NCBI GenBank assembly: GCA_963812015.1
Contig: CAWETI010000002.1
Location: forward strand, 1,408,001-1,472,000
Reading direction: 5' to 3'
DNA from: an uncultured delta proteobacterium
Lineage (GTDB): Bacteria > Desulfobacterota > Desulfobaccia > Desulfobaccales > 0-14-0-80-60-11
Length of the DNA: 64,000 nt
Positions within the stretch are counted from its first letter, which is position 1, and every line of letters begins with the position of its first letter. Below are positions 30,279 to 51,672 of this stretch, in pieces. The position numbers were made by a program, and so were the translations under genes. The notes under the pieces are model-generated. The model had not been told where the DNA came from and made no database searches. It saw nothing but the letters and a program-made list of their open reading frames with translations.

Positions 30279-31553
30279 TTATATTTTCGGAAAAGACACC
30301 CAAAATCCCATCAGGATTCCTAACAAACTTACCAGGGGTATTAAGACCCTGTAGTGAATTTGGGTAACAAAAATACCGTAAATCATCATTAATAAGATAA
30401 GCAGATAATTGCCATATTTAATAAAATAATAAATGAAAGGGGGCATCGAAATTAGTTTAAAGAATATAAATCCCGCAATCCAAGACATCAACCCGAAGGC
30501 CGCCATGATAATTCCATAAAATGATGCTACCAATAAGATATTCAGAAGCCTGTCAATATTATAATTTATGAATATATTGCGTATTCTTAAATCATAAGCA
30601 TTTGCGCTTGGCAGATAATAGCCATAATGAGGAGGCCAAAAGGCCGGTTTAAGATGGGCTAACCTGATATAGTATTTATTATTGATGAATCTACCTGCAC
30701 TTAAATCAACTTGCTCTTTTATTACTTGATCTATAGTCTTAATCTCAATATCTTTCTGGAGTGTAATCCATTTTATGAGTGCCTCAAAATCTTGAAACGT
30801 GAGTTGCATGGTTCCGTCGCTTACTTCGTAGTTGATTTCACTAAAATCGTACTCGTGGAATACGACACAAACTATCGGTTGAGAGTAGGAAATGCGTTGG
30901 GCATAACTGAGCACCTTTCTTAACTGGCCTAATTCGCAGGTATTGGGTAAGAATTTTAGGGTGGCAGATGGACTGGCATAGCCAGAAAGATTCGAAGAGA
31001 GGCAGAGGAAGTTCATTTTTTCTAAAGCCAGTAAGGTATTGGCGTCATACGTACCAAAAGGTGGAATAAACGTATCGATTGAGACACCGAGGGTCTTCTC
31101 TAAAAATAATTTTCCTTCTCTTATCTTTAAAAATTGACTGTCATAATCAAGTCCGGCAAACTCGGTGGGTTTATTCAGAAATGATCGGTTGATATTATGG
31201 TGTGAATAACCATGCAGGGCGACATTTAGTGTCCCGGCATGAATGGCATTGAGGAGCATGTCGACCTTCGGTTGACTCAACACAATGACATCTTGAGGCC
31301 TCGGGTTCTGGATCACGCCGGACGCCACATAAGGGATGACCCCAACCGTAAAAGCAATGTGATATTTTTTGAATAGATCGATTACCTTTTCATCTAAATA
31401 GGTGGCGCTTTTGCTGGAATAATCATCATATCTGAAAATTAGGGTAACAGAATTATGATTTATCGAACCATAACTTGGAATAGTCATAAAATTAAACAAT
31501 ATTTTAGAAAAAATTCCCAATCTTGATAATAAGGAAGATCTGGATATTGTCAT
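30279..31553 (-). CDS. AT-rich membrane-anchored polysaccharide deacetylase-like protein (DUF2334/CE4)
   Basis: FRYDDY, LHGYSH, FIPPF, VFHEYD; three C-terminal hydrophobic segments. Confidence 0.8.
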   Translation of the reverse strand: MTISRSSLLSRLGIFSKILFNFMTIPSYGSINHNSVTLIFRYDDYSSKSATYLDEKVIDLFKKYHIAFTVGVIPYVASGVIQNPRPQDVIVLSQPKVDMLLNAIHAGTLNVALHGYSHHNINRSFLNKPTEFAGLDYDSQFLKIREGKLFLEKTLGVSIDTFIPPFGTYDANTLLALEKMNFLCLSSNLSGYASPSATLKFLPNTCELGQLRKVLSYAQRISYSQPIVCVVFHEYDFSEINYEVSDGTMQLTFQDFEALIKWITLQKDIEIKTIDQVIKEQVDLSAGRFINNKYYIRLAHLKPAFWPPHYGYYLPSANAYDLRIRNIFINYNIDRLLNILLVASFYGIIMAAFGLMSWIAGFIFFKLISMPPFIYYFIKYGNYLLILLMMIYGIFVTQIHYRVLIPLVSLLGILMGFWVSFPKI

Positions 31554-38169: not shown

Positions 38170-38610
38170 ATGAGGATAGTGGCCTTAATTATCGGGATTA
38201 TGTTGGTTTCAGCCGGCGTCGTGGGAGCTATTGACACGCCTAGTCGGACTGTACCCCCGGCCATGCCTGAGGTCATAGATGGTGTCCCCTATACGGGCGT
38301 CATCCAAAACAAAACCAGTTACGAGGTGTCGATCCCATCGGATAATAGCGATGCCACCCTGATTATTCCGCCACATGGGTGGATAGAGTATACCATCTGG
38401 ACCCACCAGTTTGACGTAGCAGCCTACCACAATGGCGACCCGTTTTATTGTCTGAAACTAATCGCCAATCCCCAGGCGTATACCTTCAAGTGCAAAAAAT
38501 ACGATTTCATGGCGGAGATCGTCAAACCGGAGCCGGTGCGGAAGTATAAACCCATGAAAAAGCGGCGCATTAAAAGAAAACCGAAAAGCGATGATGCAGA
38601 GTTAGGGTAG
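38170..38610 (+). CDS. Hypothetical secreted protein with basic C-terminal tail
   Basis: Signal peptide MRIVALIIGIMLVSAGVVGA; beta-rich body; KKRRIKRK tail. Confidence 0.75.
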   Translation: MRIVALIIGIMLVSAGVVGAIDTPSRTVPPAMPEVIDGVPYTGVIQNKTSYEVSIPSDNSDATLIIPPHGWIEYTIWTHQFDVAAYHNGDPFYCLKLIANPQAYTFKCKKYDFMAEIVKPEPVRKYKPMKKRRIKRKPKSDDAELG

Positions 38611-38762: not shown

Positions 38763-38965
38763 CACCTAGTGGCGTGTTTCAGAATTAAAGTAACAAGGTA
38801 AAAACCGGTCTTTTACCCCCCTTTCCTAAAGGGGGGCCAGGGGGGATTTTTATAAGAGTTTGAAATCCCCCTGAATCCCCCTTTTTCAAAGGGGGACTTA
38901 ACCTGCCAGGTCTGGTGCTCCCAGCCTGCATTTATGTCCATCTAATCATGCAACACTACACCTAG
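38763..38965. mobile_element. Putative MITE-like insertion inside a REP palindrome
   Basis: CACCTAG direct repeats at 38763-38769 and 38959-38965; imperfect inner inverted repeats; carries a family B repeat. Confidence 0.5.
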
Positions 38966-39036: not shown

Positions 39037-39708
39037 TCAAACCGGCCGGGTCACCGCCCGACTGAGGTTTTGCAGGATGTCCAGGTAGACCTCCGAGTAG
39101 TTCAACCTTCCCTGGCGGATGGCGTAGAAGGCATTCAGCATCAGGGACGCCACCATGAGATTGGCGAAGAGCAGTTGGGGGGCCCCGGCCGCCATAAGTT
39201 CCTCGCATGACAGGGTGGCGGGGTTCTGGTCCTGGGGGTCGGCAATCTCCGGATGATAGCGGCTCAGGGACGGGGTGAGGTCCTGGCCCCCCTGGCGCAC
39301 GTAAACCTGGACGTTGCCGTCCTCATAGTCGTTGCCCCCGGAAATGAGGGTGAGGTCGGCAAGGGAGGCGGCATGGCGGCTGACCAGGTTACGGGAGGCG
39401 TGGTTGTCCACCATCAGGAAGACCACCTCCCCCTCGCCGATCAACCGGGCCACGTTGTCCTCCGTGACATATTCCGGGGCCGCCCGGAAGGCGATGACTT
39501 CGAACTCCTGCGCCAGTTCCAGCGCCTTGACCTCGGCCTTGTTGCCCAGGCGGGAGAACGCCTGGCGGGCCGCGTTGCTGCGCTCAAAGCGGTCGCCGTC
39601 AATGAGGGTGAGACGGGCCCTGACGGCGGAATATTGCAGATAGCGGCAGAGAAAGGGGAGCAGGGCGCAGCCGATGCCGCCGATGCCGATTGCCTTGATC
39701 TCTAACAT
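39037..39708 (-). CDS. ThiF/E1-like adenylyltransferase
   Basis: GIGGIG, IDGDRFERSNAARQ, NKAE, VDNHASR, SCEE...QLLFAN; no CxxC zinc pairs. Confidence 0.92.
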   Translation of the reverse strand: MLEIKAIGIGGIGCALLPFLCRYLQYSAVRARLTLIDGDRFERSNAARQAFSRLGNKAEVKALELAQEFEVIAFRAAPEYVTEDNVARLIGEGEVVFLMVDNHASRNLVSRHAASLADLTLISGGNDYEDGNVQVYVRQGGQDLTPSLSRYHPEIADPQDQNPATLSCEELMAAGAPQLLFANLMVASLMLNAFYAIRQGRLNYSEVYLDILQNLSRAVTRPV

Positions 39709-39792
39709 ACAGAAGCTCCTTGAGGTATGCCCGGAACCGGGGAACGACTGCTGATCGCCGGCTGAAAGGTATTGAGAAAAGTCCGGTTCGGG

Positions 39793-40455
39793 TCAAGGGC
39801 CGAACTCGATGGGCCGGGGCAGGGGAGTCACTTTCCGACCCACTTCCCCGGCCCAGTCCGCCTCAGGCGGCGTCTCCTCCCAGGGGATGGGATAGGGTGA
39901 GAACAGGTGCTCCGGGGGAATTTGCCCCCGAAACCCTTGGACCACCACGGAGCAGGACAGGGTGAGTTCGCGGTCCAGGTTGCCGATGGTAAGGTGAAAG
40001 CCGTCTTCGAAGCGTTCGTCCTGCCAATCCCTGAGGGAGTGAAACGCGTCCAACCCGGCATGGCTGTGGATGGTGCCCAGGCGGGTGAGTCCCGCCGGGA
40101 ACTCCCTGACCTCGTAATCGCAATGGCCACCCCCCACGGTCTGGTGGGGCACGACCAGTTCGTAGGTCCGGGTGGCTTCCCGCCAGGCCAACAGAACCAC
40201 GGCTTCGCTTTCGTAGCGGGTATAAACGGCCCGGAAGAAGGCCACGGCCCGGAGCAGCAGGGCGGCGGGCAGGGGAGGGGCGCTCAGGCGGATATCGGGC
40301 CCCTGGGACTCGAGCCAGGGAATGCCCGGGGCCGGGACCACAGCCTCAAAGAAGGGAGTCCGTTTCACCAGGAACAACCCATCCCGGGTGAGGAGATAAT
40401 AGATGGTGTCGGCGGGCGGGGAATAATCCCGGTCTTTCAGATAAATGGGTAACAT
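39793..40455 (-). CDS. JAB/MPN (JAMM) metallopeptidase
   Basis: SEAVVLLAW (catalytic E) and GTIHSHAGLDAFHSLRD (HxH-x7-S-x2-D). Confidence 0.88.
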   Translation of the reverse strand: MLPIYLKDRDYSPPADTIYYLLTRDGLFLVKRTPFFEAVVPAPGIPWLESQGPDIRLSAPPLPAALLLRAVAFFRAVYTRYESEAVVLLAWREATRTYELVVPHQTVGGGHCDYEVREFPAGLTRLGTIHSHAGLDAFHSLRDWQDERFEDGFHLTIGNLDRELTLSCSVVVQGFRGQIPPEHLFSPYPIPWEETPPEADWAGEVGRKVTPLPRPIEFGP

Positions 40456-40920: not shown

Positions 40921-41141
40921 CTAGCCTCCCGCGGCCCTCAGCCGAAAAACATCTGCCTCCACCGGCCAGTCGTCTCCCGGTCACGGGGCCATGAGGCCTG
41001 GAGCGGAAGCCTGAAATTCCTCCGAGGTTCCGCCCGCGCCCGGGATAACCCTGGGCGGGGGTGAACGGTAATCTCCGATCAGGTGGATAAGTTTCTGAAA
41101 TCATAAATTTTTCGGCAAGTTTTGTCAATCCTGGCCAAGGT

Positions 41142-49779: not shown

Positions 49780-51672
49780 TTGAAGCTCACCGCCATCAAA
49801 TCGAGGGCCATTGGGTATCGGTTTGGATTAGGCGATGGAGTGCCACTGAAATTCACCCCATTGAAAGTCCTCAGGTCGAATGGGGGCCATGGGACTGTTG
49901 ACGATACCCCCAATCTCACCTGGATTTTCCTTCTCTTTTTTGTATCCGCTAGTTTTCTGGCGTTCTCGTCCGTCCTGTCCTCGTTCTTCTTGTCGGATGA
50001 TTTTTGCCTGATAAGTTTAATCCGGGCAAGAGGTGCCTTCGGGATGTGGACTCGGAACAGTAACTTTTTTCGCCCGATCATTAGCCTGAGTATTTTTCTC
50101 GATCATTATTTGTGGGATTTAAATCCACTGGGCTACCATTGCACCAATATCTTTCTCCATGGCTTAAACTCATTTTTGGTTTGCCAGATATTATTAATTA
50201 TAATGAATAGATCTGCGACCAACAGTAAGGAAAGGGTAATTCCATTTTTTGCAGGATTGTTGTTCTTAGTTTTGCCATGTCATGCCGAATCAGTTGCGTG
50301 GATATCAGGCCGCACTGATGTAATTGCCACATTTTTTATGTTAATAAGTTTTTATATGTATTTATATTTTAATTCATATAGCAAAAAATATTTCCTTTAC
50401 ATTTCCATTTTATCATTTATCTTGGCTTTATTGTCAAAGGAGTCAGCTATAACAATGCCTGCTATAGTATTTCTTTTAGCAGTTTATCTTTATTTGACAA
50501 GTTTAGGTAAATATAGCGATATGCGTCGATTAATATTTATCAATTCTCCATATTTTTTAATAATCCCAGTTTATTTGTTACTCAGGTATGTATCCATAGG
50601 GGCTCTCCTGGGGGAGTTCGGGCCTAACATTTTTTCACAATTGAATTTTACAATCTTCTTGGAAACCATTGGCTCACAGTGTGCCAAGATCATTTTACCC
50701 TTAACGTTATTGAAATATTTTAATAATTATTGGGGGAGTTATCATCTTTTTCTCCCGGTTTGGTATATAGTATTAATTATTTCTGCATTGATTGTTTCCA
50801 TTTTAGTGGTAATGATAATAAAAATAAATATATTTAATGTATTGTCCGATGCAGTAAAAAATGCGTTGTTGTCTGGTGTCTTGCTTTCCATGTTTATATT
50901 ATCATTAATCCCTGTTATTGGCATGCCTATCTCTTTAACTGACAGTCAGAGTGATCGCTACGCTTATCTTCCGTCAATATTTCTAATTATATTGGTTGTG
51001 TTATTTATTAAGACCGTTTTTAGAAAGAAACGCTATTCTATAGTGTTATTAACTATTATTACTTCTTTATATAGTTATGCATTGGTCCAAGCCAATGTAA
51101 ACTGGAAAATTGCCGGGACCATATCACAAGATATTGTCAATAAGTTGGTGGGATATGATAAGTGTGACCATCTTTTTGTGATTAATATTCCCGACAATCT
51201 CAACGGTGCCTATATCTTTCGCAACGGCTTGGATTACGCCATTCCCCTTTTTATGCCAGCACCTCCTTATAGCAAGTTGATAGTTGTTTCATTCCAAAAT
51301 CTTTTCAGTGAAACCGAGGATATTCGAGTAAATTGCCGCTCGGACATGATTTCGGTGGCATTCAACCATTCCTCTGCAAGCAGGACGAGCAATCCGGATT
51401 TTTGGATCAACCGCAACCTTAATGCCGACGGCAATCACCCGGCGCACATCCCCTCTGGAGGTTCTTTTCAGACCCCCCTCTATGGAATTTCCGGATTTGA
51501 ACCCACTGGCTACCAGATAAAGTTCACACACCTTGGCAACCAGGATCGGGTGGCCTATTTCACCCAAGGACGGTTAACTGATTTAAGCTGCCCGCTCTAT
51601 AGCGAGTTCAGGACCCCACCAACAGATCAAGGGCAACTTGCCCACCTGGCGGGGCTGGCAGGCCGCCGGTGA
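49780..51672 (+). CDS. AT-rich polytopic membrane protein, GT-C/PMT-like glycosyltransferase (start uncertain)
   Basis: FLSDDF, FFRPI, GYH..N..LH, HAESVAWISGR.D, LLSKESA, DRYAYLPS. Confidence 0.8.
   Translation: MKLTAIKSRAIGYRFGLGDGVPLKFTPLKVLRSNGGHGTVDDTPNLTWIFLLFFVSASFLAFSSVLSSFFLSDDFCLISLIRARGAFGMWTRNSNFFRPIISLSIFLDHYLWDLNPLGYHCTNIFLHGLNSFLVCQILLIIMNRSATNSKERVIPFFAGLLFLVLPCHAESVAWISGRTDVIATFFMLISFYMYLYFNSYSKKYFLYISILSFILALLSKESAITMPAIVFLLAVYLYLTSLGKYSDMRRLIFINSPYFLIIPVYLLLRYVSIGALLGEFGPNIFSQLNFTIFLETIGSQCAKIILPLTLLKYFNNYWGSYHLFLPVWYIVLIISALIVSILVVMIIKINIFNVLSDAVKNALLSGVLLSMFILSLIPVIGMPISLTDSQSDRYAYLPSIFLIILVVLFIKTVFRKKRYSIVLLTIITSLYSYALVQANVNWKIAGTISQDIVNKLVGYDKCDHLFVINIPDNLNGAYIFRNGLDYAIPLFMPAPPYSKLIVVSFQNLFSETEDIRVNCRSDMISVAFNHSSASRTSNPDFWINRNLNADGNHPAHIPSGGSFQTPLYGISGFEPTGYQIKFTHLGNQDRVAYFTQGRLTDLSCPLYSEFRTPPTDQGQLAHLAGLAGRR

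Follow-up and report, generated by a model that had tools for sequence, protein, structure and literature searches.

The window, by which we mean the whole stretch of 64,000 nucleotides analysed, carries two adjacent genes on its minus strand, 84 bp apart, that encode a JAB/JAMM zinc peptidase of 220 aa (39793..40455) and a stand-alone ThiF-fold E1 of 223 aa (39037..39708). A preliminary description of the sequence had reported both as co-directional neighbours, and both open reading frames were found at this site. The intact JAMM motif and the E1 motifs without CxxC pairs that it had noted also hold up among homologues. The JAB, which is predicted to serve as maturase and de-conjugase of a ubiquitin-like protein (Ubl), has the catalytic residues E84, H130-S-H132, S140 and D143, with E84, H130, H132 and S140 kept in 90/90 aligned homologues and D143 in 89/90. 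The E1 contains G8xG10G11xG13, D39-x5-N45-x2-R48Q49, S167C168 and Q178LLFAN183; Cys168, located in the crossover-loop region, is kept in 123/123 aligned homologues and the adenylation motifs in 121-123 of the 123, while the zinc CxxC is present in none of them. MoeB and ThiF usually carry zinc-binding CxxC pairs, and the E1 differs from these cofactor enzymes both in lacking the pairs and in lying on a separate branch (see below). It scored under every cut-off of the MoeB/ThiF NCBIfam models; its Pfam match was to ThiF (E 2e-15) and its sole PDB sequence match was MoeB (E 3e-7). The JAB matched Prok-JAB (E 1e-4) and PRTRC_A (E 1e-6). The best NCBIfam matches were PRTRC_A for the JAB (28 bits, cut-off 102) and PRTRC_ThiF for the E1 (45 bits, cut-off 145), both far below the cut-off.

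The pair is preceded by dtd and a cupin gene, the two neighbours already named in the preliminary description, and is followed by a 146-aa ORF and ispG. Its composition is likewise host-like as claimed, with GC3 of 0.85 for the E1 and 0.78 for the JAB against 0.78-0.85 in ispG, dtd and purB. Between dtd and the cupin gene is a candidate sigma-70-like promoter (41100..41128, minus strand; TTGACA-17-TATGAT, 11/12) that could drive cupin-JAB-E1; it is a consensus match only, from a scan that returned 2 sites against 0.7 expected by chance. In four wetland metatranscriptome libraries, contigs of relatives span the JAB and E1 and likewise every neighbour gene, and since DNA carry-over into such contigs is possible, this coverage was not taken as evidence of expression. 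The 146-aa ORF (38170-38610, plus strand) belongs to no known family, has a signal-peptide-like start and a basic tail, and is kept beside ispG in carriers and non-carriers of the system described here, with tandem paralogues in some relatives. A palindromic REP-like element at 38811-38900 has 79 blastn matches in the genome, and a comparable hairpin with G/C runs immediately precedes the start of the E2 gene. Two low-GC genes of the window, at 30279-31553 and 49780-51672, look recently acquired and resemble by eye a polysaccharide deacetylase and a membrane glycosyltransferase.

Neither ORF inspection nor tblastn with phage Ubl and E2 queries revealed a Ubl- or E2-like gene in the gaps flanking the pair, as had been stated before. 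The further proposal, that the pair is a domesticated module for attaching and detaching a modifier whose gene lies elsewhere, is supported by the Ubl gene found on contig C3 and the E2 gene found on contig C2 of the same genome, both far from the pair. The queries came from a viral contig whose E1 is 47% identical to that of the window and which carries an E2-fusion, JAB, E1 and Ubl in a row; tblastn of its proteins on the window's genome gave the Ubl (E 3e-13) and the E2-like gene (E 6e-5). The Ubl (C3, 380268-380546, plus strand) is 92 aa long and ends in GEKG followed by RDAD, and it was missed by a C-terminal motif scan of all ORFs of the genome because of this tail. Among its 17 orthologues in a panel of 41 genomes, identity is 78-90% as far as GEKG, after which each sequence continues for 1 to >100 unrelated residues. 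Since the tail is unconserved in 17/17 orthologues, trimming would be obligatory if the Gly is used, and a neutral tail is what would be expected if the JAB removes it, as BubCD does on BubAB (10.1101/2024.11.21.623953). Among distant Ubls 50/75 terminate at the Gly, and GxKG is invariant in 46/46 aligned Ubls. The Ubl also has a weak match to ThiS (E 0.001). At the other end, the 17 family Ubls share an N-terminal LKxxT tail. It occurs in 9/9 ATPase-linked, 0/40 viral and 3/26 other Ubls, the last three being on short contigs of Methylomirabilota type. This tail is a candidate handle for the motor described below, an association that is confounded by kinship. Between the Ubl gene and rpoZ is what we take to be a HicA/HicB-like toxin-antitoxin pair (C3, 380661-381553). 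Since the 251-aa gene before the Ubl (37/41 panel genomes) and dtd (38/41) are present in non-carriers, neither is a part of the system.

The E2-fold protein is encoded on contig C2 (415102-415887, minus strand), directly behind an ATPase gene. Asn135 is kept in 74/74 and Cys149 in 73/74 aligned sequences, and no column has His in >9/51 rows. A homologue matches Prok-E2_D (E 2e-8), and homologues also match PRTRC_B. The top 25 structural matches of its model (pLDDT 86) are all of the UBC fold at Z 4.1-5.1, where the threshold of the tool is about 8, and Foldseek alone, which gave no match at E < 0.001, did not place the fold. When the E2 was co-folded on the E1 dimer plus Ubl, the score was 0.34 against 0.01 for the best control, which lends weak support to the pairing: the calibration mark was reached by 116/157 solved and 2/215 mismatched pairs, only 18/157 solved pairs and both mismatches fell at <=0.60, and a resemblance to E1-E2 complexes already solved may contribute. 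The runs had no less than 73% of contacts in common, and the partner pLDDT was at least 80. The model of residues 1-48 is beta-beta-beta-alpha and weakly matches PC4/Sub1/PUR ssDNA-binding folds (Z 3.3-3.8), making a dimerisation or nucleic-acid-binding module possible. The apparent start of the gene is an Ile codon (C2:415887, locus L095; orthologues L096-L115), ATC or ATA being found with an AGGA-like site upstream in 13/14 pattern-matching loci (20 examined), and 10/14 loci have no in-frame upstream ATG, GTG or TTG.

The neighbouring gene (C2, 416250-418001, minus strand) encodes a tandem AAA+ ATPase of 583 aa that is Cdc48/p97-like; this fifth partner lies outside the window and was absent from the preliminary description. 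Its model (pLDDT 93) matches the D1-D2 two-ring core of Drg1/p97/Cdc48 in Foldseek (E 2e-21 over about 600 columns, TM about 0.6), and the CDC48 profile scores 89 bits against a cut-off of 803. The D1 domain is degenerate, lacking the Walker A Lys, and D2 is intact, retaining its Walker A and Walker B motifs, the two arginine fingers and a pore loop of sequence KWVG. There is no p97 N domain, for which 583 aa leaves no room. BLAST of the two halves against each other gave no match, and for the N-terminal half ESM Atlas returned only unnamed clusters. The genome has no 20S proteasome pair and no Pup ligase; its sole proteasome-family gene is presumably HslV-like, judging by its start. In one relative (G008), a second ATPase copy (contig C114, 10780-12519) is 96% identical to that of the window's genome, compared with 86% for that relative's own copy, and is probably bin contamination.

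In the 41-genome panel, orthologues of the E1 (E < 1e-100) were found in 17 genomes, the JAB in 19, the Ubl in 17, the E2 in 20 and the ATPase in 18, all within the same 4 of 13 genera. A search of the family's 69 genomes gave the E1 in 43, the Ubl in 41, the E2 in 46 and the ATPase in 43; with these four genes searched, 39 genomes had all four, 23 none and 7 some. Six of the seven partial genomes are incomplete or fragmented assemblies (70-93%) and in the seventh, G016, the system is decaying. It is kept in 7 genera of the family. The genes occupy three sites in the window's genome (JAB-E1, Ubl, and ATPase-E2), and in many relatives the Ubl and ATPase-E2 are found on one contig about 5-13 kb apart, mostly on opposite strands and with housekeeping genes between. 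The JAB-E1 site is fixed, with dtd at 21, ispG at 30 and the JAB at 31 of 40 relatives' loci; the JAB and E1 are 11-21 kb apart in two genomes (G015 and G007). The cupin gene is present in only 13/40 carrier loci and also occurs at the empty site of G018.

A tree built on seven flanking proteins of 16 genomes unites the carriers in one clade (UFboot 96), within which G002 and G016 are nested. G002 has empty Ubl and ATPase-E2 sites with intact flanks, its JAB-E1 site being cut by a contig end, and G016 has empty JAB-E1 and Ubl sites, a broken E2 and an E1 only on a 2-kb contig. About one gain and two or three losses underlie the co-occurrence of the genes, the related genomes not being independent. 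Pairwise distances of unlinked members correlate at rho 0.68-0.91, and those of members with flanking genes at 0.56-0.82. Median pairwise dN/dS for the five genes in 15-18 genomes is 0.15-0.20 (JAB 0.18, E1 0.17), with unsaturated dS, compared with 0.06-0.09 for rpoZ and a thioesterase; the JAB and E1 are intact and under purifying selection. Sampling 401 genomes across the phylum gave the E1 in 7, of which the sole one outside the family carries Ubl-E2-JAB-E1 contiguously on a contig of 4.6 kb.

Contiguous forms of the system are found elsewhere. The E2-fusion, JAB, E1 and Ubl occur in this order in 36/39 viral loci, and the fetched DNA of these loci has the ATPase in 0/39. Since the ATPase is absent from the phage and several other operons (DNA fetched), tagging as such would not need it. 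In the large-phage operon (L160-L197, L031), the E2 fusion measures 820-970 aa, the tail of the JAB is long and variable, and the Ubl is extended at its N terminus; RNA polymerase genes adjoin the operon on L031. Among the best 80 of 180 metagenome loci, ATPase-E2-JAB-E1-Ubl was found three times, ATPase-JAB-E1-Ubl six times and ATPase-JAB-E1 once, at a contig end. The ATPase of these operons is of the same family as that of the window's genome (E about 1e-175 for full-length copies), and cluster members of the operon proteins are named Methylomirabilis/NC10. In seven loci of Methylomirabilota type, seen as contigs alone, the ATPase is directly before the JAB with no E2 between, which counts against a strictly fixed five-gene set.

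In a quick E1 tree, the Methylomirabilota-type E1s group loosely with those of the Desulfobaccales (SH-aLRT 86), apart from the main phage group, the MoeB-type and the tandem E1s. The window's E1 falls outside the MoeB/ThiF paralogues, the placement that the preliminary description had said would count against it not being found. This tree has one MoeB-type row and puts the window-type E1 on a long separate branch, and it does not separate a phage from a non-phage origin of the host clade. Annotated phage and plasmid collections yielded distant E1s only, three records each at about 30% identity. Further cassettes (L073, L201-L217, L244, L251 and L278) consist of Ubl-E2-small helical protein-JAB-E1 with short Ubls and no ATPase (DNA fetched), and several of their Ubls end in GxKG plus one residue, often Cys. 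A MoeB-like gene of the window's genome (C3, 1360477-1361164, minus strand) is interrupted by a frameshift, which may be an assembly error, close to a run of G.

The class 6d operons were predicted in 2006 by Iyer, Burroughs and Aravind (PMC1779556), and we infer that class 6d corresponds to PRTRC (TIGR03735-03737; Pfam Prok-E2_D and Prok-JAB). Judged on sequence, the present system is a variant of the class-6d/PRTRC kind and not of Bub. The earlier claim of kinship to both stands for PRTRC, whose models are the best NCBIfam matches albeit far below cut-off, and falls for Bub, since Cys is present on both the E1 and E2 here and Tyr/Ser in Bub. The features shared with class 6d/PRTRC are separate genes for a small Gly-ended Ubl, a JAB with an N-terminal extension, a stand-alone E1, which here as well is next to the JAB gene, and a Cys-bearing E2-like protein. 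The system differs from it in that all profile scores are far below cut-off, the invariant His that follows the E2 Cys in that class is absent, and the strictly conserved Arg and Trp of JAB-N are absent: PRTRC_A aligns over the N-terminal part of the JAB, and no Arg or Trp there reaches 90%, with Lys31 in 84/90 and mixed Arg/Lys at 32 (residues 25-40). DUF2016 did not match the JAB, and the genome gave no match to PRTRC ParB (TIGR03734) or to the alpha-helical partner PRTRC F, for which the control genomes were likewise without a match. Furthermore, a tandem Cdc48-like ATPase has been added, and the genes are chromosomal, scattered and vertically inherited, unlike the one sporadic contiguous operon of class 6d/PRTRC.

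Bub (6E/DUF6527; Ye et al., 10.1101/2024.11.21.623953) resembles the present system in a JAB that matures the pro-Ubl by a cut after Gly, a minimal E1 and an E2 without E3. It differs in its chemistry, an E1 crossover-loop Tyr and E2 Ser forming oxyesters there and invariant Cys being found on both enzymes here, and in its fused genes (JAB-E1 or E2-E1), which are unfused here. DUF6527 (PF20137) had no match in the genome, the control matching in 1/14. BilABCD (10.1101/2023.09.26.559546) likewise comprises a Ubl, E2, JAB and E1, uses Cys chemistry and has no E3, but its E1, BilD, has a tandem IAD-AAD-CYS architecture and belongs to a compact defence operon, whereas the E1 here is a single-domain protein of 223 aa that matches BilD at E 2e-6 only. 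The coupling of a Ubl conjugation set to an AAA+ ATPase, with modelled tandem AAA+ domains, recalls eukaryotic ubiquitin-Cdc48/p97, from which the system differs in having no N domain, a degenerate D1, no E3 and no proteasome. A Ubl set with an AAA+ ATPase is also found in the FtsH-ternary systems (PMC7159879), which include a RING E3, vWA/MoxR and effectors that were not seen here. A full-text literature search found no description of the ATPase-linked, dispersed form, and published operon tables could already list such a set.

We consider it very probable that the Ubl, JAB, E1, E2 and ATPase constitute one system, and probable that this system conjugates the Ubl to proteins. From the genes, their conserved active sites and folds, their co-inheritance and the operon form found elsewhere, we infer every chemical step of the following model, the role of the ATPase as reader and a cellular rather than defensive role. 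The JAB would cut the variable tail of the Ubl after GEKG to expose the C-terminal Gly, which the E1 dimer would adenylate and carry as a thioester on Cys168. The Ubl would then pass to Cys149 of the E2, which would transfer it to target lysines, no E3 having been seen. The Cdc48-like ATPase would engage the tagged protein, perhaps via the LKxxT tail of the Ubl, and unfold or extract it, and the JAB would take the tag off again. We favour, with moderate confidence, this reversible tagging pathway, whose five genes are passed on and lost as a set although they occupy separate sites, and in which the ATPase would read the tag and the function would be cellular, in remodelling or quality control. 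The modest fold scores of the E2, the degenerate D1 of the ATPase and the antiphage role of the characterised relatives (Bil, CBASS) call for caution with the tagging reading. The characterised bacterial E1-E2 pathways, as described in the sources cited, are compact operons shown or proposed to be antiphage, and the present one is chromosomal, in three pieces and equipped with a p97-like motor. It would provide a five-protein, E3-free test case for ubiquitin-style tagging in the remodelling of bacteria's own proteins and for the origin of tag-unfoldase coupling, as well as the first soluble handle found on the predicted class-6d/Prok-E2_D chemistry.

The same chemistry could instead serve against phage as in Bil, with the Ubl placed on phage proteins and the ATPase dismantling them or resetting the system. 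Conjugation is used for defence by both Bil and type II CBASS (10.1101/2024.11.21.623953 and 10.1101/2023.09.26.559546), and the presence of the same E2-JAB-E1-Ubl set in large phages (36/39 loci) implicates the family in phage-host conflict; the losses in G002 and G016 also accord with a defensive function. We nevertheless find this role unlikely, as the genes stand singly among housekeeping genes at fixed sites, are vertically inherited and host-like in composition, and PADLOC gave no match for the JAB, Ubl or E2 and weak general matches only for the E1 and ATPase. It is less likely still that the Ubl, JAB, E1 and E2 conjugate while the ATPase is no reader of the tag, acting instead to remodel the E2 or another partner or being a linked passenger. 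The ATPase is absent from all 39 viral loci and from the shorter-Ubl operons, has no p97-type N domain and in the window's family adjoins the E2 and not the Ubl. Against this, it is lost together with the other genes, heads the operon in another phylum and is tracked by the N-terminal tail of the Ubl, and a second system in the order likewise pairs a Ubl with an unfoldase-type ATPase (see below).

A sulfur-carrier or small-molecule pathway, in which the E1 would thiocarboxylate the Ubl like MoeB/ThiF and the JAB would only mature the carrier, seems very improbable. The MoeB-like sequence of the E1 and the ThiS match of the Ubl are in its favour, and operons that combine a JAB with a ThiS-like carrier in sulfur chemistry have been described (PMC1779556, Table 1 rows 4a-4e). 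However, the E1 has no zinc CxxC and lies apart from the MoeB-type paralogues in the tree, a MoeB-like gene is present elsewhere in the genome, and it is an E2 and an unfoldase that are inherited with the pair; the operons read showed neither a rhodanese nor a sulfur enzyme. That the genes are a decaying remnant of a mobile operon, as their scattering, the real decay in G016 and the complete operons of other lineages might suggest, is scarcely credible, being contradicted by dN/dS of 0.15-0.20 for all five genes in 15-18 genomes, by retention in 7 genera and by invariant catalytic residues.

The weak E1 matches seen in non-carriers belong to a tandem-domain E1 encoded in a six-gene operon. The other genes encode a 120-aa protein ending in PQEGG, a 392-aa protein, a protein of 150-180 aa that is of unknown kind, a ClpX-like ATPase and a JAB-like protein. 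The 120-aa protein has no Pfam match and is a putative Ubl by its end and context, and the 392-aa protein has ESM Atlas features near Prok-E2_D. Five of the six genes were present in 7/7 loci fetched (L308-L314, from G027, G002, G001, G020, G018, G025 and G040). In the 41-genome panel, the operon was sequence-verified in 15 of the 21 genomes without the window's system, is likely in two more and had no clear match in four, and it was found in 1 of the 20 genomes with any part of the window's system. Direct searches found it in 0/10 intact carriers and in 3/5 further genomes without an intact window set, and gave no match in the window's genome; the remaining carriers were scored from the E1 search only. 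This near-complementary distribution is suggestive of replacement, in few independent events, and of a shared job worth finding. We raise, tentatively and as a possibility less probable than the pathway itself, that in bacteria of this order an everyday cellular job needing a Ubl and a dedicated unfoldase was served by an older Ubl(GG)-E2-like-ClpX-like-JAB-tandem-E1 operon, which was displaced by the phage-related Ubl(KG)-JAB-E1-E2 with a Cdc48-like motor, and that this set then became a dispersed, resident and proteasome-free counterpart of ubiquitin-p97. Exceptions to the complementarity are G001, which has both systems, and G016 and G433, which have neither. In G002, nested among the carriers, the second system is present and the window's system is absent.
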